IMG/VR virus record: IMGVR_UViG_2703718817_000003
Source of the DNA: a virus
Taxonomy: Duplodnaviria; Heunggongvirae; Uroviricota; Caudoviricetes
Strand: one strand, 5' to 3'
DNA length: 64,000 nucleotides
This document shows, one piece after another, positions 1,060-40,662 of the stretch. Position numbers and translations under genes: made by a program. How positions within the stretch are numbered: position 1 is the first letter of the stretch; the number at the start of each line of letters is the position of its first letter. A model generated the notes under the pieces. It made no database searches. It was given only the letters and a program-made list of their open reading frames with translations, and had not been told where the DNA came from.

Positions 1060-4000
1060 TTGAGGGGGCTTCCTTTGGACAAAATAATTGATTCAATTAG
1101 CCAGGCCACCAGCATTGGGGCGCTGATTGAAATTGTTAGTCGGTTGCATAAACCGCGAGCTGTAGTGACCTTTGGCGTTAAGAAAGTCGATGGCGTCAGT
1201 ATTCAGAAAACACGCCGGGCAGCAAACAACGCCGCAGTAAATCTTCTTAATTCCCTTCCGCCTGGCTTCGATGGGGCGAAATTAACTGACGAACAGCGTC
1301 AGATTCTTGCCGGGTATACCGGTGAAGGCGGCCTGACAGATGGTGAGGGCAGCCAATACGAATACTATACGCCACAGTTTATGGCAGAAGGTATATGGGA
1401 TCTCTTCGGCGACTACGGTATTGATAGCGGTCACGTACTGGAACCGTCAGCAGGCACAGGTATTTTCCAGGAGACAAAACGGCAGGGCATGATAATGACC
1501 AGCGCCGAACTGTCTCCGATCTCCGGTCGAATAAACCAGCTTTTGCACCCGGAAGATGATGTGAATATCGGGGCGTTTGAGGCGCTGGCGGCGAAAGATG
1601 CAATGTATGACCACGCAGTTGGTAACGTACCGTTTGGCGAAGGGCGTTCCGGCGTCGCCGGGCTTGATCCGGCATATGCAAACGAGAAGAACGTTGGCAA
1701 TTATTTTGTGCTGCGCACGATCGACAAGGTTAAGCCTGGTGGACTAATTGTATTGGTGGTGCCGAATGGCATGACCGATGGTACGAAATACAAAAAATTG
1801 CGCGATAAAGTCAGCCGTAAAGCGGAATTTTTGGGCGCGCATCGTATGCCTTCTGGTACGTTCAGCGAATCCGGTACAGATACCGTGGTGGACGTATGGG
1901 TATTGCGTAAACACCCGGAAACCTTCCTGGAGATGATCCCCGACACGGATGATGCAACGCTCAAATCGGCAAACGTCCTTTGGGATACCTTCCTCAAAGG
2001 GAAATGGTTTACAACCGAAGGGAAGCGATTTGTTTACGGCGACATGGAACGCACCAGCTTCCGCAATACCCTGGTGGTGAAAAAGGACGGTCGTGTATCC
2101 AATGAGTCGATGAAAACCGCGTTATCACGCCGCTTTGAAAGCCGTATTAATTGGGATTTGCTCGGAGTAACTACCCAGGCATGGCAGGGCGCAAAAGTAG
2201 GGGATAAGCGTCTTGTAGGCGGTATCTGGCATGAGTTTGATGGCCTGAAATGGGTTAAGGACACGACAACCAAATCCTCCGCGCTTGATGTAAGTCGATA
2301 TGGTGTTTCGACGTTTGGCGATCTGCAGATCGCGTTCCAGTCAACAAACGGGATTCTGGCTTTGTCATGGGACCAGATATCGGCGATCGCGTCCGACTAT
2401 CCATCGGTTGTCAGTGATGAAGTGGCAGCAATGATTCGCTTTGCTGGCAAACAGCGAGAAAAAGACAGGGAGCGCGTTATGCGCGGTGCACTGATAGGTC
2501 AGTTGATCAACAAGGCACTTGATTTGCGTAACCTGGGGGTGAACGTTGATGACAAACTGGCAGATGCATCCCGCCTGGCGGCAGCAGAAGTTGCGAAGTA
2601 TGGACCACCGCACGCGATTAAGCTGAATGGGCTTGCAGAAGCTGGAGCTAAAAACTGGATGACGTTCACTGGCAATGTGAAACAGGATGGTTCCACTTCT
2701 GACCTTCTGGCAGGGCGACTTGATGTAACGGATGGTGCTGCCGGTATTGACTTTACACGTCCGGAACAAGTGATAGCACATCTTTTCAGTGATGTAGCCC
2801 TTTATCCTATAACGCTGGGCGACTTTCGTGAGGCGTTTGCTGGTGAACTGCCAGAGGACGACGACGCGGCCCTTGAATACCTGGCGAAATTTGATGATAT
2901 CGCTATTGATGGGTATGGCTGCCTGCTGCCGATGGACCGCGCCACCAGCGGCGATATTGCAACCAAAACAACATTGCTGGTGGGCTGGCGTGATGCGTCA
3001 ACAGGTGAACAGAAAGCGAACTTTGAGCGTCAGTTGGCGAAAATCGAAGAGAAACGCATTTTCACGCCACTAAATAAAGTCACCGTTAATCTGAACGCCC
3101 GCTGGCTGGATCGCCGCTTGATAAAAGAGTTCCTGGCAGAGCAGGGCTATGACGAGTTTAAGTACACTGAACCTGATCTGAAGGTCGTCGATGGCATTCT
3201 GGTATCTCCGGACGATTACGAAGGTAAGGACGGGGTATTTACCGGCTATCAGCTACGAACCGTAAACGGCAAAAACGGGAATGAGTTCAAGAAGGCCAAC
3301 AATAAAGACGGCTTCCTGAACCAGTTAGAAAACTACCTGAACGGTGTTAAACCGCGTGGGCAGAACGCTAACGAGTACCTGGATAAAATTGCTCAACTGG
3401 AAGTTAGCTTTAACGACTGGTTACGCACCCACCCGCAGGCGGATCAGATAGCCCGTGACTATAACGACGCATTCAATGGCTTCATTCCGTTCACGCACTC
3501 TAACGCACCGCTTGGCCTGGAAGGGATTAGTGGAAAGCGCATTCCTCTGACTTATCAGAATGAAGAAGTTCGTCGCTTGTCAGAAGATGGGCGCGGCATC
3601 ATGGGATTTGGTACCGGGCTGGGTAAAACCACGACCGCGCTTGCGCTTGAGGCGTATAACTTCGAAACAGGTCGTACTAAACGCACGTGTATTGTTGTTC
3701 CGAAGGCGGTTTATCAGAACTGGTATCACGAGGCACAGAGCTTCTACAGTGCTGATGCCTTCGCCAATATGATGTTTATCGGTCTGGATGAAGTTCGTGA
3801 TGAAGACGGCAATATTCTGACCGCGCCGGTGCTTGATGAAAATGGCGAACCCCGCCTCGACAGTAACGGGCAGCCTCTTACCAGAAATGTTGTGAAAGAG
3901 TCCGCCAGCGCCGTTATCGTTCAGCGCATGAACATGATCCCGTCGTCAAATTGGCGAACGGTCATCATGACAAAAGAACAATTCGCGTCTATCCCGCTAC

Positions 4001-8831: not shown

Positions 8832-9278
8832 TTGATGCGAAGACGCAGGCATCATAGTGCGTATTCTGAAATATCCCCGCACGCTGCTGCACTAAGAGAG
8901 TTAGAAAGAAATCCTGACTTATTAAAACGGAATTACGAACATTACGAACAGGTTCGCGTTCTGGATTGGCTGTATCGCAACATGCGATACGTGTATGAGC
9001 ACACACACTCAACACCGAACGGCGGCCTGAGAGGCAAAAGGACAGCCATTAAGATGGTGGCAGAAGGTCAGAAGAAGGGCTATCCGGACCTTTCTATTGA
9101 CCTTGCTCGTGGTGGGTATCACGGAATGCGCATTGAGATGAAGCACGGGAGAAACCGTCTGACTCCCGAACAGCTCGTCTGGATGACCCGCCTCACGGAA
9201 GCAGGCTATTACTGCTTTGAGGCGCGCAGTGCCGATGAAGCCATAAAAGCTATCACGGAATATGTAAATCTTGATTAA
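8832..9278 (+). CDS. VRR-NUC domain nuclease-like protein
   Basis: 148 aa; GYPDLSIDL...EMKHGRNRLTPEQLVWM fits the VRR-NUC (PD-(D/E)xK) pattern G-x-PDL ... E-x-K ... Q. Confidence 0.55.
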   Translation: MMRRRRHHSAYSEISPHAAALRELERNPDLLKRNYEHYEQVRVLDWLYRNMRYVYEHTHSTPNGGLRGKRTAIKMVAEGQKKGYPDLSIDLARGGYHGMRIEMKHGRNRLTPEQLVWMTRLTEAGYYCFEARSADEAIKAITEYVNLD

Positions 9279-9292
9279 ACGGAGAAATAGTT

Positions 9293-9493
9293 TTGCGTTT
9301 ACTTAACGTGGCTGAACTTATCCCTGCCGGTGCTAACGTTGTTGCTCGTCGCTGCTCATGGCCTCATTCTTTCTGTATAGAGCTTAAAAAGATGGATGAT
9401 GGGGCATTAGAAGCCCGAAACATAGTTACCGGCGACAAGGTATGCATTACCCCGGAAAGCGCGAAAGCCAATGATTGGGAGTTTGTTCATTGA
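9293..9493 (+). CDS. hypothetical small protein
   Basis: 66 aa ORF in the same operon orientation. Confidence 0.3.
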   Translation: MRLLNVAELIPAGANVVARRCSWPHSFCIELKKMDDGALEARNIVTGDKVCITPESAKANDWEFVH

Positions 9494-11120: not shown

Positions 11121-11152
11121 ATGTTAGAAAATTAAAATTGTTTTTCTAACAT
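11121..11152. promoter_or_regulatory. Inverted pair of operator-like motifs (ATGTTAGAAAATTAA ... TTTTCTAACAT)
   Basis: Near-perfect palindrome directly after the 9911-11119 stop. Confidence 0.5.
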
Positions 11153-28094: not shown

Positions 28095-28773
28095 TTAGCC
28101 ACGGTTAACTCCTTGCTGTGTGGCGTCGAGTAATAAATCCCACAACCGCTGAGAGCAATTTCCGCATGTACAGCGTTGACCCACAACGTTTATCGCGTTG
28201 CTGATTTCCGGCGTTACCTGTTTAGGAACCATAACCCAACCATCCGGAGTTACCGGAAGCGAGAACGGCAGCACATCTCTGTGAACAAGTTTTTGCTGTG
28301 ACAGGTTATCCAGAACTTTCTGTACTGCTGCATCACCGAATACACCAAGCGCATCTGCCATAACTCCTACAACCTGATAAGCCTCAGCGCATACCGTGGA
28401 TAAACCATCCGGAATTACCGGAGAGTTGCCTGCCAGTCTACGCAAAACAGTCTTAACCGCCTCAATACGGTCATCATCGCAACTTTCCAGCGTATCTATG
28501 CGATCGAGCATGATGATGGCGTTATCAATATCAGGATTGCCGGTCCACTCATTACCGCGATTGGATTCGGCAGCCTGGTTGCCGCGTACTGGTTGATTCT
28601 CGGCTTTACCCTGTCTGTCGTCGCTGCATGAATGCCCTTCCAGCCAGACCAGTGCTTGTCGCATGAAATACGCAATATGCTTGCCGTGGTAATCGTCTTC
28701 ATCGATGTGAAAAGCGATACTGCGGATATATTCAATTGCGTTTTCAATGGCCTCCGGCGTTATCGGTGCTGAC
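28095..28773 (-). pseudogene. 3' portion of a gene split by the IS2 insertion
   Basis: Reading frame stays open from 28664 up to the IS2 boundary at 28773 and is in phase with the 5' portion at 30105-30477 once one CTGAC copy is removed. Confidence 0.6.
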
Positions 28774-28784
28774 TGGATTTGCCC

Positions 28785-29690
28785 CTATATTTCCAGACAC
28801 CTGTTATCACTTAACCCATTACTGGCCTGCTGCCGCAGATATTCCCGTGGCGAGCGATAACCCAGTGCACTATGCGGATGCCATTCGTTATAATGCTCGA
28901 ACGCCTCTGCAAGGTTCTTTGCTGCCGTTAACCCGTCTGGTTTAGGCATGATACTGATGTAGTCACGCTTTATCGTTTTCACGAAGCTCTCTGCTATGCC
29001 GTTACTCTCCGGACTCCGCACCGCCGTGTTCTTCGGTTCAAGCCCCAACATCCGGGCAAACTGCCGTGTTTCATTAGCCCGGTAGCATGAACCATTATCC
29101 GTCAGCCACTCTACTGGAGACGCCGGAAGCTCGTTGCCGAAGCGGCGTTCCACCGCTCCCAGCATTACGTCCTGTACTGTTTCACTGTCGAAGCCGCCCG
29201 TAGTGACTGCCCAGTGCAGTGCCTCACGGTCACAGCAGTCCAGCGCGAACGTGACTCGCAGTTTTTCTCCGTTATCACAGCGGAACTCGAACCCGTCAGA
29301 GCACCATCGTTGATTGCTTTCTTTCACGGCCACTTTGCCAGTATGTGCCCGTTTCGATGGCGGTACAGCGGTTTTTCGCTCAAGCAACAGCGCATTCTGG
29401 CGCATGATCCGGTAAACACGTTTGGCATTGATCGCAGGCATACCATCAAGTTCGGCCTGTCTGCGAAGCAGCGCCCATACCCGACGATAACCATACGTGG
29501 GCAGCTCTCCGATAACATGGTGTATACGGAGAAGCACATCCGTATCATCTGAGTGACGGCTGCGGCGACCATCTTTCCAGTCATCGGTTCGTCTGAGAAT
29601 TACGTGCAACTGCGCACGCGACACCCGGAGACAACGGCTGACTAAGCTTACTCCCCATCCCCGGGCAATAAGGGCGCGTGCGCTATCCAC
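28785..29690 (-). CDS. insD: IS2 transposase OrfB (InsD), DDE integrase core
   Basis: 301 aa; IS3-family catalytic region (...[25 protein letters not shown]...[14 protein letters not shown]...). Confidence 0.85.
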
Positions 29691-30013
29691 TTTTTTGCAC
29701 GCCCGTATTCAACGGCTTCTTTAAGGAGTTCATTTTCCATCGTTTTTTTGCCGAGCAGGCGCTGGAGTTCTTTAATCTGCTTCATGGCAACAGCAAGTTC
29801 AGAGGCAGGAACGACCTGCTCTCCTGCGGCCACAGCAGTAAGACTTCCCTCCTGGTATTGCTTGCGCCAGAGAAATAACTGGCTGGCTGCCACACCGTGT
29901 TGCCGGGCAACAAGGGAGACCGTCATTCCCGGTTCAAAACTCTGCTGAACAATAGCGATCTTTTCCTGTGTAGTACGCCGTCTGCGTTTCTCCGGTCCTA
30001 AGACATCAATCAT
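29648..30013 (-). CDS. insC: IS2 transposase OrfA (InsC), HTH
   Basis: [53 protein letters not shown]...; start at ATG 30013 with GGAGAG Shine-Dalgarno. Confidence 0.85.
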
Positions 30014-30104
30014 CTGCTCTCCAATGACTAGTCTAAAAACTAGTATTAAGACTATCACTTATTTAAGTGATATTGGTTGTCTGGAGATTCAGGGGGCCAG
30101 TCTA

Positions 30105-30477
30105 CTGACATATTTTTATTTTGGAGTGCCAAGACGCGGCTGGCATCCTCTACGCCTTTAACTGCATCTGCGCAGTAGTTATAGCGATTGCATTCCACTA
30201 ACTTCTGCTTGAGATTTTCAATTGCTTGTGCGACATCAGCCTGCAATTCCGGAACTGGCGGAGTGGCATATAACGGCACCCACTTTGGTGCTTTATCCCC
30301 GACCGAACGCTGATACCAGTCACCCGGTTTGTATTCATAAAAATCACCAACTGGCTCTGCTTCCAGAGATGCCAGCGCAATTTCATAAGCACGGCGCTCA
30401 ATATTGTCTCGCACGTCCAGACTGCCTATGCGCTCTTTGATTTCTTTAATCAGTTCTTTGTCGGTTAAAGTGGTCAT
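30105..30477 (-). pseudogene. 5' portion of the gene split by IS2
   Basis: 124 native codons (MTTLTDKELIKEIKERIGSL...) then read-through into the IS2 end; see finding. Confidence 0.6.
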
Positions 30478-30487
30478 AAATTATGCC

Positions 30488-31021
30488 TCAGTTGTATCCG
30501 ATTGGATTAACCGCAACAATAACGCCATCCGCGAACAAATCTTTAATGAGGTGTTCGCTCGGCTCGCCTTTTTCGTACTCTTCAATAAGGTAAGTGTCTC
30601 CATCCTCATTGATATAAACTGGAAGAATGGAACCGTTGATGAAGTAGGTTCCGTTGTTATCGAGGATTTTTGCCTCGGCGATTTGTTTTTTGGTAAAACG
30701 ATCTTCTTTTTTCAAAGTTGCCATATCTGTTTCCTTATGTGGGTTAATTTTATTGTGTAGCTTCCTGAATGGGGTCCACACTATATCGATATACAGTTCA
30801 ACTAACGGTTCAAATACTTTCCCCATTAGAACAGTCACTAATATTGAGGCTATTGGTATCAGCAACACGAAAAACAGAATGATAAACAGCAATTCTAGTG
30901 CTCTACTCTTTCGCGGATATTCTTTTCTGAATAAAGTGGGCATTTCCTCCCCATTAAATGCCTCAATGATTTCTCCAGTGTTTTGCGCTGCACCTGAATT
31001 ATCTTTAAATCCTTCTTTCAT
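30488..31021 (-). CDS. membrane protein, hypothetical
   Basis: 177 aa with one strong transmembrane segment (LLFIILFFVLLIPIASILVTVLMG). Confidence 0.45.
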   Translation of the reverse strand: MKEGFKDNSGAAQNTGEIIEAFNGEEMPTLFRKEYPRKSRALELLFIILFFVLLIPIASILVTVLMGKVFEPLVELYIDIVWTPFRKLHNKINPHKETDMATLKKEDRFTKKQIAEAKILDNNGTYFINGSILPVYINEDGDTYLIEEYEKGEPSEHLIKDLFADGVIVAVNPIGYN

Positions 31022-31716
31022 CGTTTGCTATCTTCCTCACACCCAAGATATGAAAGAGATGTAATTGCTTTTGCACGGAAACCACCAACCTTGCTAAGTG
31101 CGCTTTTAAGTGCGTCAAGGTCAGATTGTGATTTGATCATGAAAGTTAACCGCGCAATTCCAGACATAGAGTCAGAACCATTCACTGCGTTGTAGTGATA
31201 TATGTATCGGGTGACTGATTGAGTCACGCCCTCCTGCTGGTGGTTTATATTGGCGTCCTGTCTTGTGTTGGCCTGCTCCAACTCTTCGATACGTTCAGCC
31301 ATCGCAGCACACTCTTCAAAGTTGCTTAATGCTTTTCGCTCCGATTCAGCGCATTGTTTTTCCAGTTCTGCTATGCGCTTACCTCCATCCGCGATTACTC
31401 CCTCGTAATGCTCGCGCTGCTCGTTGAGTTTTGATTTTGCCGACTCCAGTTGTTTTGTTAGTTCCACAATACGGCAAACATCGTTGATACGCGTTTCCTC
31501 TAATGCGTTGATCTCATCCAGTAGTGCCAAAGCAACCTTGGGATTAAAGGCAGCAATAAATTCAGCGTTGTTTTTCAGAACGTGTTGCGCAATGGCCTGA
31601 CTACTTAGTCGGACCTCATAACCACGTGCGCCACGGTGTGGTTTATATGAGTCCCAGTCTCCCCACGTTGCTTTCACTGCCGCCTCACGCAGTGCCTGGT
31701 AATTAATTTCGCTCAC
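31018..31716 (-). CDS. Ead/Ea22-like coiled-coil protein
   Basis: GTG start; N-terminus [15 protein letters not shown] shared with the 31703 and 37245 paralogs; coiled-coil centre. Confidence 0.55.
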   Translation of the reverse strand: MSEINYQALREAAVKATWGDWDSYKPHRGARGYEVRLSSQAIAQHVLKNNAEFIAAFNPKVALALLDEINALEETRINDVCRIVELTKQLESAKSKLNEQREHYEGVIADGGKRIAELEKQCAESERKALSNFEECAAMAERIEELEQANTRQDANINHQQEGVTQSVTRYIYHYNAVNGSDSMSGIARLTFMIKSQSDLDALKSALSKVGGFRAKAITSLSYLGCEEDSKR

Positions 31717-32161
31717 TGGTTGCCTCCTTATTAATCAGTTTATACAGGTGCACCACAGTCACAGAGAGTGCATCCATCGCTCGTTTATCCAGGCGCGGGG
31801 CCAGAGCAACCAGTTCATTTATTGCAATCTGAATACGCTGCTCCGCCGCCAGCGTCGCGCGATTGCTCTCCAGTTCTGCAATTCGGCACATGGCATCAAT
31901 ATTTGCGTCTTCCAGGCGCTTAATTTCGCCCAGTAGCGCCAGCGCAACTTTTGGTGGGATAGCCGCGATATAACGGGCATTGGCACCAGCGTTTCTCAGC
32001 CCATCAATACCAGGCCAGTCAATAAAGTATCCGCAATGCCTACCCTCAGACGTGCGCGCAGGATAAATGCCGTTATGACCCGGCAAAATATATGCTACCC
32101 ATTCATCTTGCGTTGCCTGTTCCGCCGCCTCGCGCAGTTCTTGATAGTTAATTTTGATCAC
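31703..32161 (-). CDS. Ead/Ea22-like coiled-coil protein
   Basis: GTG start; N-terminus IKINYQELREAAEQA; coiled coil CRIAELESNRATLAAE. Confidence 0.55.
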   Translation of the reverse strand: MIKINYQELREAAEQATQDEWVAYILPGHNGIYPARTSEGRHCGYFIDWPGIDGLRNAGANARYIAAIPPKVALALLGEIKRLEDANIDAMCRIAELESNRATLAAEQRIQIAINELVALAPRLDKRAMDALSVTVVHLYKLINKEATSERN

Positions 32162-32414
32162 TGGTTGCCTCCGCTTCCCACGTTTTCAGACTTTCACCAC
32201 AGAACGGGCAAAATGAAATTCGAATCGGCGATTTAGAAAACTCGCCTGACCGCAGCATGATCAGGTCTTGTGAATGAATTAATGCATGGTTATAGATTTT
32301 GTATTTCAGCAGACCTTTTCGCGTCGTGTATTCAGCGTCATGTTCCAGGGATTGCGTCAACGCCGCGCACGGTTCTATCTTGTTGCCATTAATTTGGCAT
32401 TTTGACTCACTCAC
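32148..32414 (-). CDS. small zinc-ribbon-like protein
   Basis: Start placed at GTG 32414 after GGAGG (SESKCQINGNK...); C-terminal CPFCGESL plus upstream Cys residues. Confidence 0.4.
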   Translation of the reverse strand: MSESKCQINGNKIEPCAALTQSLEHDAEYTTRKGLLKYKIYNHALIHSQDLIMLRSGEFSKSPIRISFCPFCGESLKTWEAEATSDQN

Positions 32415-32650
32415 TGGTTGCCTCCTTTGCGGAGTTGCGCTGCGATGCACGAAAAAAAAGACTCCCGAGTATGACAGTTAAGAGCTGGTGCGAACGCCGC
32501 GTTAAGAACGGCGGCATCACAGCCGTCATCAATATAGAGCGCAATTTTTTTCTCCAGGCGCGCTTTGGCTTCCTGCAACTGCATACCCCGGCACGCACGC
32601 GGGATATAATCAGCAATTTGAGCGATAGCTTTTTCGTTCTGTTTAAACAT
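32411..32650 (-). CDS. hypothetical protein ending in QLRKGGNQ
   Basis: 79 aa; C-terminus [10 protein letters not shown] shared with the 36213 and 37727 proteins; stop overlaps downstream GTG (GTGA). Confidence 0.45.
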   Translation of the reverse strand: MFKQNEKAIAQIADYIPRACRGMQLQEAKARLEKKIALYIDDGCDAAVLNAAFAPALNCHTRESFFSCIAAQLRKGGNQ

Positions 32651-32846
32651 GCTTCACCTCGATAGGCTTGATGGTGTCTAACAGCAGTCGGCGGCGCGTA
32701 TTTTCTGCAAAATGGCGGCGTCCAGTTTCTTTGTGGTAAAACTCGTTTTTGCCAACGACCCACATCCGCTCTGTTTGGTGCAGTTTTTTTACCTGCGGGC
32801 CATCTTTGGTGATCACGGTACCGGTATGGGTTTTTACGATTGTCAT
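32643..32846 (-). CDS. hypothetical small protein
   Basis: 67 aa ORF, 8-nt overlap with downstream gene. Confidence 0.4.
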   Translation of the reverse strand: MTIVKTHTGTVITKDGPQVKKLHQTERMWVVGKNEFYHKETGRRHFAENTRRRLLLDTIKPIEVKHV

Positions 32847-32895
32847 GCCACTACCTATTCGAACAGATGAACGAGATTTGATGCATACTCACGGT

Positions 32896-33624
32896 TTATT
32901 CCTGAATGCGCTTAAACTCGATTACCCACACCCAGGGATTAGCGTTCCAGCTTTCTTCACCATAGATGGATTCCCACAGGCGCTGGAACGCAACCTTGGC
33001 CATTGCGAAATCCCCCTTGGGAGTAAGGAATGTTCCCGGGTGATCAGGGAGCAAACTTCCAGCAGGCGGAACGCCCTCATCCCTTGCATCGCATTCGCTG
33101 ATATCGTTCAACCGCTCAACGCGCACGTTGGTAATTTCCAACAGGATGCGTGATGCCCATCGCGGCATGTGAATTGATGGACGCCACCCACCATCAAACT
33201 TTTCATTCACAGTGTGAGGTTTCCAGTCGGCATCATCGGGTATCGACCATAAACCGTAATCACCAGGCTTTTGCTCACAACTGGCCCGATAAATCCTTGC
33301 TGCGTTCTTCTCATCGCCACGACAAAGGTTGTCGTTCCAGTCCACACTGCAACCATCTTCATTGCCTAATATCGCCCATGTTTCACGAACCCAAATTCGA
33401 TCGCCGACGATACCAAAGGGGCAATTGAAAACACTGCTTACACCATCAGCCCCGTACCACTGAAAACCTGCACCAATTTCCCTAACCATCACTGGTGCTT
33501 CTGGACCAACTTCCGCAGGCTGATTTTTCATTATCCGCCGCGTCTGCGTTTTCCTTCCTTCGAGGATGGCTCGGACCATCTCATCGTTAAAAATCATCCC
33601 GCGTTCTTTCATTTTTTGATCCAC
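32896..33624 (-). CDS. ASCH-like domain protein (hypothetical)
   Basis: 242 aa; N-terminal FNDEMVRAILEGRKTQTRR resembles the ASCH/PUA-like signature (ILxGxKTxTxR). Confidence 0.45.
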   Translation of the reverse strand: MDQKMKERGMIFNDEMVRAILEGRKTQTRRIMKNQPAEVGPEAPVMVREIGAGFQWYGADGVSSVFNCPFGIVGDRIWVRETWAILGNEDGCSVDWNDNLCRGDEKNAARIYRASCEQKPGDYGLWSIPDDADWKPHTVNEKFDGGWRPSIHMPRWASRILLEITNVRVERLNDISECDARDEGVPPAGSLLPDHPGTFLTPKGDFAMAKVAFQRLWESIYGEESWNANPWVWVIEFKRIQE

Positions 33625-33628
33625 ACCA

Positions 33629-34624
33629 TCAGTTATTGAACGTGATCACTCCGCGCTCGATGGCGAAGTCGAAAAGCTGGTTGGCGGCTACGTAAAGGCG
33701 TATGCCATGTGCTTTTTCCCATGCCCGGACATCGTTTTCTGCGCTTCTGGCGCATTCATCGCAAAGAGGAACGGCCCAGCGATCGTGTTCGTTTAACGAG
33801 CGGGCGCGGTACATGAACGGGTGATTAACTTTGCCTCCGCATCCGATGCACGGACGAGAAATCACAAACCGGAGATAAGCCGGGCTTTTACCGAGAACCG
33901 CTTTTGGTCGGCGCATATACAGCAGGCCGGAATCCTCATCTACAGACAGGTTGACGATCTGCTCTGCGGTTATGTCCACCAGCTCACGGGTGCTGTGCTC
34001 CCAGGTGATATCCGATTCTTTCAGTGTGCCGGTAGGGATTTCCTGTTTTGGCTGACAAAATGCAATGCGACCGGCTTCATCTGGCAGCTCGTCTTTCAGA
34101 TTCCGGCGAATGGCCCAAAAAGTGAGTTCAACCATGCTCAGATCGCGTTCTGGCGGTAGTTTTAACTCGCTCGCAGCCCAGTTCATAACCCAGTTGGCAC
34201 GATTCAGGGATAACTGGTCATCCAGCTTGCCGTACCCCTTCATCATGTATTCCGCATCATGCTTCCAGCACAGGCGAACGGCAGAGCCGTTATAGAAATG
34301 AGTGGTTAGCTGGTGGCTGCAATCGCGCTTATCGTGCGCCTGGCAATCGTGGATATTGGAACTTACCCAATGAACAAGCGAATCTTCACCGCCTAATGCG
34401 TTAAATACGCGCTCGCTTTGAAAAAATGCTTTCAGAGACTGGTTGGCAACCAGCGAATAGTTCAGATCCACTACGCCATCTGGCGTGTTTTCAGCCTGTT
34501 CGCGCGGAAGTGGAGAGATAATGAAACGGCGACCTGCGCCAATGTAGTTGCTGGTGGGCTTGTCTACCGGAAAGACAGCCACACCAGCTCCGTTTACGAA
34601 ATGAGGTGTGATTATTGCACTCAT
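33629..34624 (-). CDS. hypothetical protein with C-terminal Cys cluster
   Basis: 331 aa; CIGCGG...PLCDEC suggests a zinc-binding module; first gene downstream of an operator-like palindrome. Confidence 0.5.
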   Translation of the reverse strand: MSAIITPHFVNGAGVAVFPVDKPTSNYIGAGRRFIISPLPREQAENTPDGVVDLNYSLVANQSLKAFFQSERVFNALGGEDSLVHWVSSNIHDCQAHDKRDCSHQLTTHFYNGSAVRLCWKHDAEYMMKGYGKLDDQLSLNRANWVMNWAASELKLPPERDLSMVELTFWAIRRNLKDELPDEAGRIAFCQPKQEIPTGTLKESDITWEHSTRELVDITAEQIVNLSVDEDSGLLYMRRPKAVLGKSPAYLRFVISRPCIGCGGKVNHPFMYRARSLNEHDRWAVPLCDECARSAENDVRAWEKAHGIRLYVAANQLFDFAIERGVITFNN

Positions 34625-34665
34625 AATGTATACCGACTCTGTTTTGTTCCGAGCGGTAAAATAAT

Positions 34666-34697
34666 ATGTTAGAAAATTAAAATCAATATTCTAACAC
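34666..34697. promoter_or_regulatory. Inverted pair of operator-like motifs (ATGTTAGAAAATTAA ... ATATTCTAACAC)
   Basis: In the gap between the ppp gene stop and the 33629-34624 gene start. Confidence 0.5.
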
Positions 34698-34728
34698 GGT
34701 TTTGAGTGCATAAACGATGTGTTCAGGA

Positions 34729-35445
34729 TTACGGCTGGCCTCCCTTCACCTGCTTTAGCGTCAGATTTCCGCAAAAAACCGCGCCAGTGTCTATGTAGTG
34801 CTGGTTCCAGAAAGATTTCGGGCTGTTTACTGGCGTATGCCCGAAAATAAAGCTATCTGCACCAGTGATCATTCCACCAACACCATCAACCGCGTCATAA
34901 AATCGCTCACGCCGCCAGGTAACATTGAGATCGCTAACAGGTTTACCAAACTGGTATTCGTTATCAGGATAGTCGGCATGGGCTATAACGATAGTTTCAT
35001 GCCCGGTGTTCAACTCAATGATATAGGGTAAACGTCTTACCAGCTCCACCAGCGCCCTGGCTAATATTTCCCGATCAGCGTCCAGCATGAAGAACCATTG
35101 GCCGCCATTCATTAGCCAGTTATTCACGTTGCCTGCGGGGCTTAACGCATCGATCATTAATCGCTCGTGGTTTCCCATAACCGACCGAAACCAGGGCATC
35201 TGCAATAGCTCCAGGCATTCAACATTTTCGGTGCCGCGATCGATAAGGTCGCCAACCGATATCAGTAAATCCTGTGTCGGGTCAAAGTCCACACGATGAA
35301 GTTCAGACATCAATCTGGTGTAGCAACCATGCAGATCACCAACAACCCATATGTTTCTGTAGCCTGAACCATCAATACTGCTATATAAATTCACTTCATG
35401 CAGCGCCTGGGTCATGCGGCAACCTTCTCCCGCAGCCAGATACAA
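34729..35445 (-). CDS. ppp: Ser/Thr protein phosphatase (lambda PPase/calcineurin-like; P1 Ppp-like)
   Basis: 238 aa; metallophosphatase motifs GDLHG, GDLIDRG, GNHE. Confidence 0.8.
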
Positions 35446-35723
35446 ACCGGGCCATCTTCAGTGTCATGAATAGAGCCAACAAACCATCCTTCGCCCTCTG
35501 GTCGCTCTGGTTCCCAGGCGGCAATATCGGGACCATCTGCGTCCAGATTAAAATGATCTTCATCCATACTGCGAATAGTCCACTGAAGATTATTTTCCTT
35601 CATCCAGGCGTCAAATTCCTCAGTGGATATATATTCACGACCTGCGCAAAACTTTTCATACTCCGGATGTGTCCAGCAGCCATATTCATCACGTTCTACC
35701 GGCATTTCTTTAATGATGCTCAC
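35412..35723 (-). CDS. hypothetical protein
   Basis: 103 aa ORF in operon context. Confidence 0.4.
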
Positions 35724-35944
35724 TCTTCATCCTCCAAGTCGGCAACGGCCTCCATCACATCAGAACCGCGAATAACCTCAAAAGCACGGCAGGCCATTTC
35801 AAACACCTGTTGTTCTTGCGGATGCGGTGACTCCCAATACTTAAAACCAGGTCGATGCTCGTAACCCAACATGGAATAAAAATCGCCAGCAAGCTCAATC
35901 GCGGCATCAACAAGTTCGCGATTTGTCATCGTCTGTTCTGTCAT
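35720..35944 (-). CDS. hypothetical protein
   Basis: 74 aa ORF; 4-nt overlaps with both neighbours. Confidence 0.4.
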   Translation of the reverse strand: MTEQTMTNRELVDAAIELAGDFYSMLGYEHRPGFKYWESPHPQEQQVFEMACRAFEVIRGSDVMEAVADLEDEE

Positions 35945-36216
35945 TTTGTTTTCTCCTGTCTGAACATCACTATCATCAGGTCGCCTTTTGTCGCTATCCT
36001 GGCTGTTGTACCTGGTTCAATGCGGCTAAGCTCAAATGCGTCATAGAACGCTTCTAATGCCTTCTGGCGTAGTTCCTGTTTGCGCCGTTTTTTCCACTGT
36101 TTCAGGAAAATGGAACCCAGCCATCGCCATGTACGGGACATGATGTAAAGCCAACCGAGAAGTGCCAGACCGGTATTTAGGAGCGTATCGATCGTTATTG
36201 TCGTGTCGATATTCAC
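35941..36216 (-). CDS. small membrane protein
   Basis: 91 aa; GTG start in the conserved GGAGGCAGCCAGTGA junction; hydrophobic N-terminal half. Confidence 0.45.
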   Translation of the reverse strand: MNIDTTITIDTLLNTGLALLGWLYIMSRTWRWLGSIFLKQWKKRRKQELRQKALEAFYDAFELSRIEPGTTARIATKGDLMIVMFRQEKTK

Positions 36217-36923
36217 TGGCTGCCTCCTTTGCGAAGCTGTTCAGCAATACTTACGCATATCTCTGCGCCTCTAATCAGCCCCGGAACGTTCTTGTTTGGC
36301 CCAACTTCACCATCGACAAAATCAATCATCGCGTTACGAGCCATATCCACGCCCTGCGCACGTACTTCAGCCAGGAAAGCATCGGTGGCTGGGGTATCAA
36401 CACGGATACTGTCGCGCAAGATGAAAAATGCATTGAGCATTCCAGTCTCTGGCACTTCATCCTGATGCTTCTCATACGCATCAAGAGCCTTCATCATCTC
36501 AGCTCCGAATGGTTGAGGGTGCACAGACTTCAGCTCCGCATTCTCCGCCGCCAGCACCGCGCGTTCGCTCTCCAGTTCTGTAATGCGCCGTCTTGCAGCA
36601 TCCAGTTCAATCGACAATTTTCCCAACTGCTCTTTATGCTTCTTGTATTCCTGATATGCGTGCCAAGACTGACCTTTGCGCACACTATCCGTGATATCAG
36701 TAATCTGTTCTGGTGTTAGCGTGGTCAGTGGCTGTGCTGGGAAAATCAGCACTTTCCCGGCATCCCAATCAAAACCCACCTGAATTGACTGAACCTCAAC
36801 TGATGGTGTTGAACCGATGCGACCAGGCGAATGAACAACGATCGTTACATCCATATCGCGACGATGGCTGTGGTTGTTGGACAAAATACGATTCACCAAC
36901 TCAGAAAATTTGGAAAATTTCAT
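36213..36923 (-). CDS. Ea22-like coiled-coil protein ending in QLRKGGSQ
   Basis: Start placed at ATG 36923 ([10 protein letters not shown]...), overlapping the upstream stop (ATGA); coiled coil [30 protein letters not shown]. Confidence 0.5.
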
Positions 36924-37276
36924 GCTGATTCCCTTTGCTCTTCCAGGATAATGTTGTTGCAATCTTTCACGCACTCGTTGCAGATGAAAACGTTGTCCCC
37001 GGCAATTAACTTTTTAACGGTGTGCTGGGATTTGTTGCAGAAGCTGCAATAAAGCGTTGGACTGGCTGATACGGATGGTGCGCCAGATGTCAGCCGCGCG
37101 ATGTCGTTCTTGCGACGCAATATCACACGGCTGCACTCGACCAGCATCTCCGGGGATATATCCTCCTCCGTGGCGAGCGCCTCCAGACGTTCGAGCAAGC
37201 GAAATACTTTTTCCCGGGTGATTGCAGAATGCGATGTGGTCATCTCACTCTCCTTTGAGGCGAATGCCTGTTGCAA
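36920..37276 (-). CDS. ClpX-type zinc-finger domain protein
   Basis: 118 aa; C-terminal [26 protein letters not shown] matches the ClpX zinc-finger pattern. Confidence 0.5.
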
Positions 37277-37730
37277 TGCTGTTTATGATGCTGTCAGTGC
37301 ATGGGGTAGAAAGCTGGGCATCTCCAGCAATTTTCATGACCTCAACATCTGCATATCGAATACCGAGGTGTATCAGACCGGCTATGCCTGACTTAAGCCG
37401 AGCATTTTCCATAAATAGAACCTTTGCCCGCTGTTTTTCTGCTTCAAGCTCAACGCGCAGCTTCCCTACCGTTAGCGCAATATCCTCGTTCTCCTGGTCG
37501 CGGCGTTTGATGTATTGCTGGTTTCTTTCCCGTTCATCCAGTAGTGCCAGCACGGTTTCTGGTCCGGCCAGAAATTTGAAGGCGTTGAGCGCATCAATAT
37601 CCACACCGTAATCTTTAAGTTCCTGTTCACTTAACAAATCATCATCAGCTGGCAACATTAACAGGCGTTCCATTGCTGGAATTGCACGTTCCGCCGCCTC
37701 ACGCAGTGCCTGGTAATTAATTTCGCTCAC
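37245..37730 (-). CDS. Ead/Ea22-like protein
   Basis: GTG start overlapping upstream stop; first ~50 bp of gene plus junction identical to the 31018-31716 paralog. Confidence 0.55.
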
Positions 37731-38401
37731 TGGTTGCCTCCTTTGCGAAGCTGGGCAGCGAACCTATCAGCTGCATCCGCGCAAGCAGAAGCAACGGAAT
37801 CAAAAAATGGATCATCTCCTGTATCGCGCATCGTCAAAGCGAATGCCTCCACCCCTTGTGCCTGTATTTCTACAAGGGATGCCTTAGATGTAGTGCTTTT
37901 CGCCTCGCCTAATTCGTTATGAGCGATGTTCGCTATACATGCGATGTCTATATCTGGATGATTAATTGGGCAATGGCTAAGAATTGCCTCAAGTGCTGCT
38001 TTTTTGCTTTGGCATTCCGCCACCAGCGCCCCGCAATTGCTTTCCAGCTCTGCAATACACTTTTTAGCGGCCTCCAGCTCAACACGCAGATTCTCAAGCG
38101 TTAGAGCCTTCTCCACGTTCTCGTCCAGCAGTTCAATCACATCAGGATCGCTACCATCAACTACTGATATGCGCGAATTTTTGTAATGCTCGTCAGCATA
38201 AGTTCGTCCAGTTTTGAAGCATCCGTCATCCTCCATGCCGGAACAGGCATAAACAACATGTGATCCAGATATGCGCTGCATTGACATTTCCTCGCCACAA
38301 ACAGGGCATTTAGGCGCTGGTTTCGGTGAATAACGTTCACGTAACGGATAGTAAAGCTCGATCTCCGCCAGTTGCTCTGGCGTTAAACCTTCAGACTTCA
38401 T
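37727..38401 (-). CDS. zinc-ribbon / coiled-coil protein ending in QLRKGGNQ
   Basis: 224 aa; N-terminal CPVCGEE...C...C ribbon; coiled coil; shared C-terminal domain. Confidence 0.5.
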   Translation of the reverse strand: MKSEGLTPEQLAEIELYYPLRERYSPKPAPKCPVCGEEMSMQRISGSHVVYACSGMEDDGCFKTGRTYADEHYKNSRISVVDGSDPDVIELLDENVEKALTLENLRVELEAAKKCIAELESNCGALVAECQSKKAALEAILSHCPINHPDIDIACIANIAHNELGEAKSTTSKASLVEIQAQGVEAFALTMRDTGDDPFFDSVASACADAADRFAAQLRKGGNQ

Positions 38402-38708
38402 GTACTCTCCTTTCGAAATAAACGTACTGATTAATCATTCCCAGGGGCATTTCGAGTTTTTCTGCGATCTCACGGCGGGGAACACCACACTGATGAAGCT
38501 GCCGCGCCAGTTCTATATCGCTCTGCCGGTATTTGGCTGACTGGTGAAAGTCTCCTTTCAGAATCATGCTGATCCGCAGTTGCCGCGCTTTAGTCCTGAC
38601 AGCACCACCGGTACGCCCGATCAGTCTCCCAATACCCTCGACTGTCATAGTCCCGGCGCACTGGCGGAGCATCATGATTTCTGCCCTTCCCCATCCCCGC
38701 CAGCTCAC
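38391..38708 (-). CDS. helix-turn-helix protein (hypothetical regulator)
   Basis: 105 aa; two HTH-like segments. Confidence 0.45.
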   Translation of the reverse strand: MSWRGWGRAEIMMLRQCAGTMTVEGIGRLIGRTGGAVRTKARQLRISMILKGDFHQSAKYRQSDIELARQLHQCGVPRREIAEKLEMPLGMINQYVYFERRVHEV

Positions 38709-39316
38709 GCAGAACTCCTTCTAACCAAAAGAACGCCATCTTCAGAAACAATGTTGCAGGACTTCAGGTAATTCATTGCTACTTTCGGTAATGGATTCTT
38801 TGGATCGGCGTTTGCCAGGGATTTCGATAACCTCATGATAAATTTGATCATTACCTTCTGACGGAGCTTGTGCTCATGAGATGCAGACAGGTAATAGGAA
38901 ATGGTATGGGCTAAACGCTCACGAAGCTGTTCTGTGCCGTGATATACAGCAGCGATATCACGCAGTGCATTGACCAGTTCCCGGTAAATATGCGGAGCAA
39001 CCTGGCATTCAATGTTGGTTGGTGACTCATAAATTACATTCAGCCCCAGCTTTTGAGCCAGCTCGTGCTCTGCACGAGCGCCAACTGATTCCTCCCACCC
39101 CTTGAGCAAATAGACCGCATTAGCCGAACGCACCATTGCAAGGCAAATATCCATGTATTCGCTCTCGCAGAGGCCAGCAGGTAACAGCGCCGGATTCAGA
39201 ACAATATGCCCTACCTCCATCAGCTCTTTTGCTTTCGAAAAAAACGCTGTGCGGTTGTAGTCGGGATAACCAGTCATCGGCCCTGCGATGTAAATTTTCA
39301 TAATGCGTTTTGACAT
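38705..39316 (-). CDS. DUF4406-like (nucleoside 2-deoxyribosyltransferase-like fold) protein
   Basis: Start placed at ATG 39316 (MSKRIMKIYIAGPMTGYPDYNR...), overlapping the upstream small ORF stop. Confidence 0.5.
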   Translation of the reverse strand: MSKRIMKIYIAGPMTGYPDYNRTAFFSKAKELMEVGHIVLNPALLPAGLCESEYMDICLAMVRSANAVYLLKGWEESVGARAEHELAQKLGLNVIYESPTNIECQVAPHIYRELVNALRDIAAVYHGTEQLRERLAHTISYYLSASHEHKLRQKVMIKFIMRLSKSLANADPKNPLPKVAMNYLKSCNIVSEDGVLLVRRSSA

Positions 39317-39471
39317 CAAAGTTTCCCCAGGAACGTTACGCAAAAGTTGATGAGAGCAAAGAGTTCAATGCCCAGCTCAAACAACGCCAGGACAGTGAAA
39401 AACAGGGCATATAGCAACCCAATTTCTGTACCGGATTGCTGGTGGATTGCACTTATTGCGACAAGCATCAT
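39316..39471 (-). CDS. small hydrophobic protein (51 aa), first gene downstream of the 39512 operator
   Basis: Not in ORF track (<60 aa). ATG 39471 preceded by AGGAGG; product MMLVAISAIHQQSGTEIGLLYALFFTVLALFELGIELFALINFCVTFLGKL; TGATG coupling to next gene. Confidence 0.35.
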   Translation of the reverse strand: MMLVAISAIHQQSGTEIGLLYALFFTVLALFELGIELFALINFCVTFLGKL

Positions 39472-39511
39472 GACCTCCTGATATAGCGTCTGAAAAAAGT
39501 ATCTTCATTTT

Positions 39512-39543
39512 GTGTTAGAAAATCAATTTTGATTTTCTAACAC
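39512..39543. promoter_or_regulatory. Near-perfect operator palindrome GTGTTAGAAAATCAA-TT-TTGATTTTCTAACAC in a divergent promoter region
   Basis: Best-formed copy of the recurring motif, between the minus-strand operon head and the Ref-like gene. Confidence 0.55.
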
Positions 39544-39587
39544 GTTTGATCAACCATAGCGGCGATGTAGACAAACCGGGTATTTCT

Positions 39588-40163
39588 ATGAAGCAAAGCT
39601 ATTGGGAGAAACAGACACAAAAAGCCCTGCAAAAACTGGCTGATCCGAAATGGCGGGAGGAACAAAGGGCAAAGCGTCTTCAGCAAGCTCAACGCCTGCA
39701 GCAGCGTGCGCGAGAAAAAGCCGCATCGCCTGAATATCGGCAAAAGAAAATTGAAAAAGCGAAGCAATATGAACAGCGAAGAAAAGAGAAGGCCGCTTCT
39801 GCTCCTGTCAAAAAAACTCGCGCGTCACGCGGCCTGAAAGGCAGAACACTCACAGCAGATGAGCGCCGGATACAAACTGCCATCGGTGCTCTCCCCTGCA
39901 TTGCCTGCCATATGCACGGACAGCATAGCCCTGTGGTATCCCTGCACCACATCTTCGGAAGAACAGCAGAGAACGCGCATAAATACGTCCTCCCTTTGTG
40001 TAAATGGCACCATCAACACGCAGCGCCAGCAGAGATCCGCGAGCAATACCCCTGGTTGGTTCCTGTTCATGCTGATGGAAAAATAGGCGGCAAAGCAGAT
40101 TTCAGGCGGCACAATGCTGATGAAATGACGTTGTATCAGATGGTGACTGAATTAATAAATTAA
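39588..40163 (+). CDS. ref: Ref-like HNH endonuclease (basic disordered N-terminus plus HNH/His-Me finger)
   Basis: K/R/Q-rich N-terminal ~75 aa; C-terminal CIACHMHGQHSPVVSLHHIFGR...LPLCKWHHQH HNH-type motif; alternative TTG start at 39546. Confidence 0.55.
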   Translation: MKQSYWEKQTQKALQKLADPKWREEQRAKRLQQAQRLQQRAREKAASPEYRQKKIEKAKQYEQRRKEKAASAPVKKTRASRGLKGRTLTADERRIQTAIGALPCIACHMHGQHSPVVSLHHIFGRTAENAHKYVLPLCKWHHQHAAPAEIREQYPWLVPVHADGKIGGKADFRRHNADEMTLYQMVTELIN

Positions 40164-40174
40164 TTTTCTAACAT
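40160..40174. promoter_or_regulatory. Operator-like motif TTAATTTTCTAACAT overlapping the ref stop
   Basis: Recurring motif family. Confidence 0.4.
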
Positions 40175-40494
40175 TTTAAGTTGAATTGTGAGATCCGCCG
40201 TTGTACATTCACAACCGATTGGTACACCGGTCAACTTTTTGAGACAAACCGTTTGGTTTTTCGTATGATTGCCGCCGCCATACCAATGGCGGTGCAATAT
40301 AGGTGGCTGAAAAGCCCCCGTTGACTCACGGTGTTCCAACCTTTATTGCGCCGCCACCAGACCGTGGAACAGTCGATGGCGGCTCCGAAAGCAAGGAGTC
40401 ACTACACTATGAACAGCTACTGTCTTTTCCCATCACTCGTTATCCGCCACTCACGCGATAATCTGCATTCTTTACTCGCGCTGGGGGTGTCAAA

Positions 40495-40662
40495 ATGACC
40501 GTTCGCTATCTCAACTTTCAAATCCAGAACATCACTGGCGGTTGCTATGACTGGTTTGTCACTCTCGGAAAAGAAGTGATCACCGGAAAGCTGGATGAAG
40601 TGAAAGCTAAAGCAATGGCCTACGCCTGCAAGCAAGCCCAAAAGAAGAAAAGAAAAGCATAA
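40495..40662 (+). CDS. small basic protein (55 aa), hypothetical
   Basis: Not in ORF track; MTVRYLNFQIQNITGGCYDWFVTLGKEVITGKLDEVKAKAMAYACKQAQKKKRKA; followed by a terminator. Confidence 0.3.
   Translation: MTVRYLNFQIQNITGGCYDWFVTLGKEVITGKLDEVKAKAMAYACKQAQKKKRKA

Follow-up and report, generated by a model that had tools for sequence, protein, structure and literature searches.

Positions 31018-38401 of the IMG/VR virus record IMGVR_UViG_2703718817_000003, a stretch of 64,000 nt from a member of the Caudoviricetes that was analysed as a whole and is called the window here, hold an array of small genes, all located on the minus strand, in which one short sequence returns at five gene boundaries. 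Four genes of the array pass the gathering score of 27 bits of the Pfam family PF13935 and were assigned to the Ead/Ea22 family; further Pfam matches are to DUF4014 and, as a weak match only, to DUF6980. The architecture typical of Ead/Ea22 proteins, in which a short conserved segment at the N-terminus precedes a coiled coil and a variable C-terminal domain, is found also here, and the gene bodies cannot be aligned to each other past about +45 nt. The recurrent sequence is a 15-mer, hereafter the core, which reads TCACTGGTTGCCTCC on the plus strand and GGAGGCAACCAGTGA in coding sense. It occurs exactly at 31713, 32158, 32411 and 37727 and with one substitution at 36213. Our recount agrees with a preliminary description of this DNA, in which the motif had been listed at these five positions, one of them with a substitution. 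In shuffled sequences 0.17 copies are expected and none of 100 shuffles reached five copies. When up to two mismatches were allowed, no copy beyond these five was found in the window.

The core is laid out as a ribosome-binding site with its start codon. A Shine-Dalgarno sequence (SD), GGAGG, is followed by a 6-nt spacer and a GTG, and the TG of this start codon forms, together with the next A, the TGA stop of the upstream gene. The overlap of the GTG with the upstream stop had been described for the motif as such; this is correct for three of the five cores, where the overlap consists of the 4 nt GTGA, but not for those at 32158 and 31713. There the upstream gene is in the +1 frame and ends at a TAA within the Ile-Asn codons of the next gene, 10 nt beyond the core TGA, which yields an overlap of 14 nt. 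Because the upstream genes read the core in two frames, its nucleotides are retained though they encode different peptides. In the window the reading frame can be extended upstream of the GTG by just 3-18 codons, and the PGAP annotation of related genomes uses the same GTG starts with 4-nt overlaps. An SD inside the upstream coding sequence, a proper spacing and a start overlapping the stop are what is seen in translationally coupled phage genes of the ATGA/GTGA type, and we infer from this layout that the genes at the junction are translationally coupled. No sequestering structure is predicted, therefore coupling would act by reinitiation. The difference from other coupled overlapping genes is that here the same 15-21 nt are reused between unrelated gene pairs and are read in two upstream frames. 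Stop/start overlaps are present at 12 of the 18 junctions of the array; thus, tight packing is general in the array and the 15-mer is its most reused junction type. The features are compiled in Table 1.

Table 1. Features of the array and its junctions (positions refer to the window)
Feature	Position	Strand	Remarks
Core copy 1	37727..37741	-	GGAGGCAACCAGTGA; GTG start overlaps TGA stop; sole copy with tail and head modules
Core copy 2	36213..36227	-	variant GGAGGCAGCCAGTGA; from gene D to the DUF4752 gene
Core copy 3	32411..32425	-	from the 79-aa gene to the DUF6980-like zinc-finger gene
Core copy 4	32158..32172	-	from the DUF6980-like gene (+1 frame, ...EATSDQN, stop) to Ead152; 14-nt overlap
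Core copy 5	31713..31727	-	from Ead152 (+1 frame, ...EATSERN, stop) to Ead232; 14-nt overlap
Tail module	37742..37761	-	about 20 nt, -20 to -1 from the core; encodes ...FAAQLRK
Head module	37682..37726	-	about 45 nt, +15 to +59; 5' end of Ead/Ea22 gene
Second boundary type	37241..37256	-	AAAGGAGAGTGAGATG; Ead C-terminus ...IRLKGE with stop, SD, ATG
Gene A	37727..38401	-	224 aa; partial Ead_Ea22 (41.2 bits, without head), coiled coil, QLRKGG-type tail
Gene B	37245..37730	-	161 aa; full-length Ead/Ea22-like, PF13935, 112.9 bits, E 2e-32; ends ...GIRLKGE, stop
ClpX-type zinc-finger protein	36920..37243	-	107 aa, essentially C4 zinc finger only (PF06689, E 3e-17)
Gene D	36213..36923	-	236 aa; HkaH/Eae-like, coiled coil, QLRKGG-type tail
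DUF4752 membrane-type protein	35941..36216	-	91 aa; non-Ead, begins at core GTG
79-aa protein	32411..32650	-	no Pfam family; QLRKGG-type tail
DUF6980-like zinc-finger protein	32148..32414	-	88 aa; begins at one core, ends 14 nt past the next
Ead152	31703..32161	-	152 aa, Ead/Ea22-like, PF13935, 66.8 bits, E 4e-18
Ead232	31018..31716	-	232 aa, Ead/Ea22-like, PF13935, 76.3 bits, E 5e-21
Internal segment of Ead152	31872..31954	-	IAAxxPKVALALL...; homologous to 31460-31542 in Ead232
Shared coiled-coil segment	36543..36600	-	ELESxxAxLAAEN; also 31841-31898 and 38015-38072; shorter copy 31349-31378
30-bp palindrome	34667..34696		TGTTAGAA-N14-TTCTAACA; inside a 104-nt gap; second copy 39513-39542 heads the array

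On either side the core may be extended by a conserved module. The tail module has homologues at 36228-36247 and 32426-32445, and the genes bearing it, those ending at the cores 37727, 36213 and 32411, terminate in ...A(A/E)QLRKGG(N/S)Q directly before the stop. A common C-terminal peptide of three upstream genes had been claimed before and is confirmed by the translations of 37727-38401, 36213-36923 and 32411-32650. The head module has homologues at 32113-32157 and 31668-31712; 34 nt are identical to the copy following the core at 31713. Its peptide pattern is MS[EK]I[ND]YQxLRE..., found behind the cores 37727, 32158 and 31713. The start peptide reported earlier for 37245-37730, 31703-32161 and 31018-31716 is indeed shared by these three genes, except that the third has a V instead of an E. 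Both modules are present at 37727 alone, and the other four copies are composed of the core plus one half. The junction is a composite of two independent modules, which overlap in the core only.

The tail belongs to the HkaH/Eae-like family and to unrelated DUF2737 genes, the head to Ead genes. Gene D is similar to HkaH of phage HK620 (E 5e-14), to an Eae-like protein from an epsilon15-type phage (E 2e-7) and to gene A (E 1e-6); all four have a coiled coil, a 16-residue block and the tail in common. Directly downstream of the core also the non-Ead genes for the DUF4752 and the DUF6980-like protein are found. Of the earlier picture, an array of Ead/Ea22-like paralogs stitched together by a single junction, the family assignment of four genes and the reuse of the core remain, but the locus is not one paralog array and the sequences joined at the core come from several families.

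Identity between the copies is short. In the best pair, 31679-31729 and 37693-37743, 51 nt are identical, namely the core with 34 nt on its downstream and 2 nt on its upstream side. This bears out the identical block of about 50 bp with divergent flanks that had been described, its ends being shifted by 1-3 nt. In an anchored comparison matches drop beyond about +45 nt to 2-4 of 15, which is random, and the remaining pairs of cores have the core and either a partial tail or a partial head in common. Uniform identity over whole genes, which had been named beforehand as the result that would speak for simple duplication, is not seen. It would also be the expectation, at least roughly, if a single Ead gene had simply been duplicated in tandem in recent times and the repeats were what is left of the complete copies. 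Such an origin appears very improbable to us: it could draw on the adjacent position of Ead152 and Ead232, on their common head and internal segment and on a relative which has a single hybrid gene at this place, but identity is restricted to 15-51 nt at the junction and a few internal blocks, with the rest being random, two of the junctions precede genes that do not belong to Ead, and for every paralog the closer relatives are found in other phages and not within the window.

The junction is widespread among phages. A query of 86 nt around the junction at 37727 matched 435 of 50,697 phage records, among them Stx, HK-type, mEp, P22-like and epsilon15-like Salmonella phages and the ea22 gene of lambda itself; in lambdoid phages it is located directly downstream of the phage recombination genes. 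The exact 15-mer was found in at least 120 IMG/VR contigs. Extended to a 21-mer by the RK codons, it occurred in one of 185,579 species-representative genomes, an Escherichia, a count that is informative only on the narrow host range. From the phage contigs 131 unique junction contexts of 315 nt were collected; this sample was selected on the exact core, and what is said of it here and below holds among the matches listed. In 13 of the 131 neither module is present, therefore a few of the IMG/VR matches to the 15-mer are probably due to chance. The types of upstream genes were classified on the basis of nucleotides and tail pattern and not by the longest open frame.

Wherever a partner of a different type adjoins the core within these 131 contexts, conservation on that side drops to background right where the core ends. 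Beyond the modules, the flanks fall into 29 left and 38 right clusters, which are joined in 88 combinations and give 64 complete 2x2 (four-gamete) tables. Such a pattern requires recombination or repeated independent joining. The same is visible on a smaller scale in ten related plasmids (numbered with an L below), which were chosen by overall similarity, not by the motif, and compared with the window. The left flank ...attcaGGGGGCAACCAGTGA is followed by a zinc-finger gene in L002, L004, L005 and L006 but by an Ead head in L009, with the switch exactly at the core. The tail of the 79-aa gene leads into the zinc-finger gene in the window and in L003, and into Ead heads in L007 and L008. One tail type of 14 residues is joined to three different partners within the window and the ten plasmids.

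Also the ends of the alignments between window and plasmids cluster at the cores. Within 25 nt of a core 23 of 93 ends are located, where 3.2 would be expected, and the test for recombination breakpoints that had been proposed for the junction is thus positive, with an enrichment of about 7-fold. Counting unique positions only, 14 of 54 are near a core (P = 4e-9, with the plasmids treated as independent), and compared with an even spread over gene boundaries 25 of 53 ends fall on 5 of 19 boundaries (P = 9e-4, under the same treatment). One recent event can be reconstructed. The plasmid NZ_CP104667.1 (L002) is 99.2-99.3% identical to the window in the flanks and has, at its positions 2619-3350, a single Ead gene of 243 aa in place of 31018-32161. 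The first approximately 70 codons of this gene are 97-100% identical to Ead152, the remainder is 100% identical to Ead232, and the switch is located in the IAAxxPKVALALL segment. The L002 gene is therefore a chimera, the product of one unequal homologous crossover of 445 nt between tandem Ead paralogs, in one direction or the other.

How far the conservation of the junction requires an explanation beyond protein function can be judged from its pattern. Among the 131 contexts and also in 41 unique Ead heads sampled by protein similarity, conservation dips at third codon positions in the tail as well as in the head; both modules are therefore kept largely by selection at the protein level. In the sample of Ead heads the exact core precedes 26 of the 41, a core with 1-3 base differences another 8, and unrelated sequence is found upstream of 7. 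The TGA overlap is kept in all 41, and results inherently from an xTG start whose next codon, for Ser (AGC/AGT) or Ile (ATC), has A as its first base. The spacer is conserved at 0.80-0.95, compared with 0.54-0.76 at the third codon positions of the head. Such conservation of a spacer that is read in two frames points to some constraint or homogenisation at the nucleotide level, for which the context of the ribosome-binding site or recombination may be the cause.

From these observations a model in the manner of Hendrix could be built, according to which the conservation reflects ancestry and the constraints of protein and ribosome-binding site, illegitimate recombination occurs anywhere, selection keeps those joints that fall on gene boundaries, and the junction plays no part in the exchange. 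The third-codon wobble in tail and head fits this model, as do the many breakpoints at boundaries lacking a core or inside genes, and the 7 of 41 Ead heads that overlap a TGA in spite of their unrelated upstream sequence. Nevertheless, illegitimate joints should differ in sequence, while the 88 partner combinations share the same 15-21 nt; breakpoints are enriched at cores even with regard to other gene boundaries; the one event that could be reconstructed took place by homologous crossover within a conserved segment; and the two frames in which upstream genes read the spacer have not prevented its conservation. We therefore regard this model as rather unlikely.

In our opinion the repeat is probably a conserved gene-boundary or linker sequence belonging to the early accessory 'ea' pool of enterobacterial temperate phages, which is exploited in cassette exchange. 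Shuffling of cassettes at the junction is supported by the partner combinations and by the swaps among the relatives, and would proceed by homologous recombination within the junction, a route suggested by the four-gamete pattern together with the one crossover in an internal segment. Ribosomes that terminate on the upstream gene, whether at the TGA or 10 nt later at the TAA, would reinitiate at the GTG, so that a cassette inserted in a junction slot could be expressed from the operon promoter without a promoter of its own. Together with the tail, the head or both, the core would give neighbours that are unrelated elsewhere a nearly identical stretch of about 35-95 nt as a patch of homology. 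Host RecA or phage annealing proteins could use this patch to swap, delete or duplicate whole genes and would each time regenerate a working junction. Exchange may take place between co-resident phages or prophages, lambdoid ones included, as well as between direct copies within one genome, and five direct copies would predispose the array to deletion or duplication of cassettes in register. Tail and head would owe their conservation mainly to selection on the proteins, the core to its function as ribosome-binding site, and recombination would exploit this conservation without being necessarily its cause.

Several observations weigh against this explanation or restrict it. The wobble at third codon positions means that ordinary protein selection would account for the conservation without any selection for recombination. 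Breakpoints occur also at boundaries without a core, with 9 ends at 38401 and 6 ends at 37244-37276, and 40 of the 93 are found inside genes, notably in the shared coiled-coil segment (where 36524/36529 form an internal breakpoint zone) and in other conserved blocks. The core is one hotspot among several. Furthermore, the core variants GGAGTCATCCAGTGA and GGGGGCAACCAGTGA stay linked to the left flank, and many crossovers may for this reason be located on the right-hand border of the core or within the head and not in the 15-mer. Finally, related plasmids count as independent in the breakpoint statistics, and the viral contigs were selected on the exact core. What had been proposed as cassette shuffling at a fixed junction is thus supported insofar as relatives do swap cassettes at the core, but other boundaries (38401, 37244) and internal segments are used in addition. 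Expressed in general terms, a short sequence is conserved at a gene boundary between differing flanks, and mosaic breakpoints coincide with it, though not exclusively.

A mechanistically different possibility is that the repeat is the site of a dedicated recombinase, similar to an integron attC or a shufflon site, or alternatively a structured RNA such as a processing site or a regulatory hairpin. Direct repeats flanking cassettes of gene size would be in line with this, and in the tails of the QLRKGG type the Leu-Arg codons CUUCG/CUCCG can form a weak stem of 4-5 bp with the SD. Against it speaks that the junction is present in a plasmid replicon and in phages whose integrases are unrelated. 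A search for inverted repeats was negative at every junction, and folding of 121 nt around each of them was no better than that of shuffled sequences (z from -0.9 to +1.0). In an Rfam scan of 29500-40500 no family was detected at the junctions; the only match was a C4 antisense RNA outside the array. A site of the attC or sfx type, which should possess imperfect inverted repeats or dyad symmetry and a dedicated recombinase, was rejected on the basis of the missing inverted repeats, the ordinary folding and the unrelated integrases. Likewise rejected was a hairpin masking the SD as the device for coupling; its stem of 4-5 bp is weak, and it is missing in the DUF2737-type tail ...MWRKGGNQ. Taken together, a dedicated recombination site or RNA element is highly improbable.

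In a more far-reaching reading the SD-spacer-GTGA core of 15-21 nt would not simply follow from the conservation of gene ends but might be maintained as a frame-tolerant 'universal adaptor' and kept uniform by repeated recombination; it would then define an accessory pool common to chromosomal lambdoid prophages and to P1/D6-like phage-plasmids, in which the plasmid arrays act as cassette holders with multiple slots. Of the three upstream frames two would be closed, by the core TGA and by a TAA/TGA eight codons further on in the Ead head, and the third would be restarted. We put this forward tentatively and consider it unlikely in this strong form.

The replicon itself gave its best matches to phage D6 and to non-mobilizable plasmids of about 90 kb from E. 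coli and Salmonella, all of the P1 group. By these matches the window is a D6-like phage-plasmid (P1 subgroup 2) which carries cassettes of the lambdoid ea region. The context of a lambdoid prophage, which the naming as Ead/Ea22 implies, is thereby ruled out, and the position typical of Ead/Ea22 genes, the early-left exo-xis/ea region of a lambdoid phage, is not the one found on this D6/P1-like replicon. Like the pro-lysogenic effect that goes with the family, this position is a matter of context and does not touch the assignment of the proteins to it. The array is flanked by ref and a DUF4406 gene on one side, with a gene for a Ref-family nuclease adjoining it, and by pmgU, hot, humD and phd-doc on the other. 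Phage D6 (NC_050154) shares with the window the backbone and the position of the array, and it has two Ead genes and genes annotated as lambdoid or phiV10-like. In contrast to the window and its closest relatives, which have 2-6 such junctions in combinations that differ in nearly every plasmid, D6 possesses one exact core. D6 belongs to subgroup 2 of P1, and gene flux is reported to be high in P1-like phage-plasmids (PMC10879196). The whole array was not found in any of 72,556 plasmids and 5,426 complete E. coli genomes, the best coverage being 82-89%; parts of it were present in 3,445 of the 5,426 E. coli genomes, at 5,509 chromosomal and 1,248 plasmid places. Judged from these numbers, turnover of the array is fast.

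The closest counterpart of the junction is located in HK620. Between hkaH and hkaG this phage has a tail, the core GGAGGCAGCCAGTGA, identical to the copy at 36213, and a head encoding VSKIDYQALRE. The next boundary, between hkaG and hkaF, is identical to the second boundary type at 37241-37256, AAAGGAGAGTGAGATG, where mosaic breakpoints are recurrent as well (about 37244). HK620 differs in having one copy of the junction in a lambdoid genome of the integrated type and beside the recombination genes, whereas in the P1/D6-like plasmid prophage of the window five copies are distributed over two likely transcription units. Clark et al. in 2001 (J Mol Biol 311:657) reportedly described 'boundary sequences' in the early-left regions of lambdoid phages, dealing with HK620, and Susskind and Botstein in 1978 are said to have formulated the model of modular exchange. 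The locus is therefore a known kind of phage mosaicism, of which it is a clear instance, and not a new mechanism. Conserved boundary sequences serving modular exchange have already been published, as stated in a paper that cites the studies of 1978 and 2001 (PMC3029335). What is added here is the presence of the HK620-type junction in five copies in a D6-like phage-plasmid, its structure of two modules, its reading in two frames and the quantified exchange of partners. It provides a clean and quantifiable example of how temperate phages may exchange single small genes without breaking expression, and it indicates that the lambdoid 'ea' pool of accessory genes is common also to P1/D6-like phage-plasmids, where it is expanded to several slots.

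In the literature, Ea22 variants are described as mosaics that have the N-terminal segment and the coiled coil in common while their C-terminal domains are unrelated (PMC10834534), which is the organization found also in the Ead genes of the window. A C-terminal K/RGE end has been reported for Ea22 proteins (PMC7093339), and gene B ends likewise. This published motif is probably the ribosome-binding site of the second boundary type read as peptide. Both papers are centred on proteins, and the passages covered deal neither with the junction as a nucleotide sequence nor with its use by genes other than Ead or with multi-copy arrays in phage-plasmids (PMC7093339, PMC10834534). For annotation it follows that the 'motifs' ...RKGGNQ and ...KGE are largely ribosome-binding sites read as peptide, and that the real starts are the GTG codons overlapping the previous stop. 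The junction furthermore offers ready homology arms for cassette swaps by which the Ead, HkaH/Eae-like and neighbouring genes could be probed.

A single operon had been assumed for the array. It is interrupted by a 104-nt gap at 34625-34728, and the palindrome inside this gap returns ahead of the array, so that two transcription units are likely instead. A third copy of the palindrome was noticed at 11122-11151, which makes three copies in the window compared with 0 expected by chance. In view of the promoter-like positions at 34667-34696 and 39513-39542, the palindrome may serve D6-type phage-plasmids as an operator or as a promoter element.

At the 5' end of gene A homology stops exactly at 38363 in seven of ten relatives, and several of them have an additional gene of 169 aa, with a tail of 14 residues, near the position corresponding to 38363-38401 (in L002 at 8924-9433), joined via the variant core GGAGTCATCCAGTGA. 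The N-terminus of gene A in the window therefore is different and probably secondary. An arginine-rich open reading frame (ORF) of 118 aa at 32407-32763 on the minus strand, in the +1 frame and ending in ...KEATSE at the core, overlaps the genes for the 79-aa and a 67-aa protein and was discarded as it looks spurious. Long +1-frame ORFs of this kind (about 142-149 aa, ...SQRRSVKEATSEQD) are recurrent in many phage contigs.

A copy of IS2 with the InsC and InsD ORFs is located at 28774-30104, between 5-bp target duplications CTGAC at 28769-28773 and 30105-30109. The insertion, which is at the distal end of the array, splits the DUF551 (EaA-like) gene there; in L002, L003 and L005 this place is uninterrupted. 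The Rfam match to the C4 antisense RNA (RF01695) is at 40282-40361 on the plus strand; with 42.3 bits (E 1.8e-5) it is slightly under the gathering score of 45, and it is consistent with a P1 immI-type c4-icd-ant region beside ref. Finally, the ClpX-type zinc finger encoded at 36920-37243 comes without an ATPase domain and is found at the same position in nearly all related plasmids. This 107-aa protein may act as a decoy or modulator of the binding of substrates or adaptors to ClpX.

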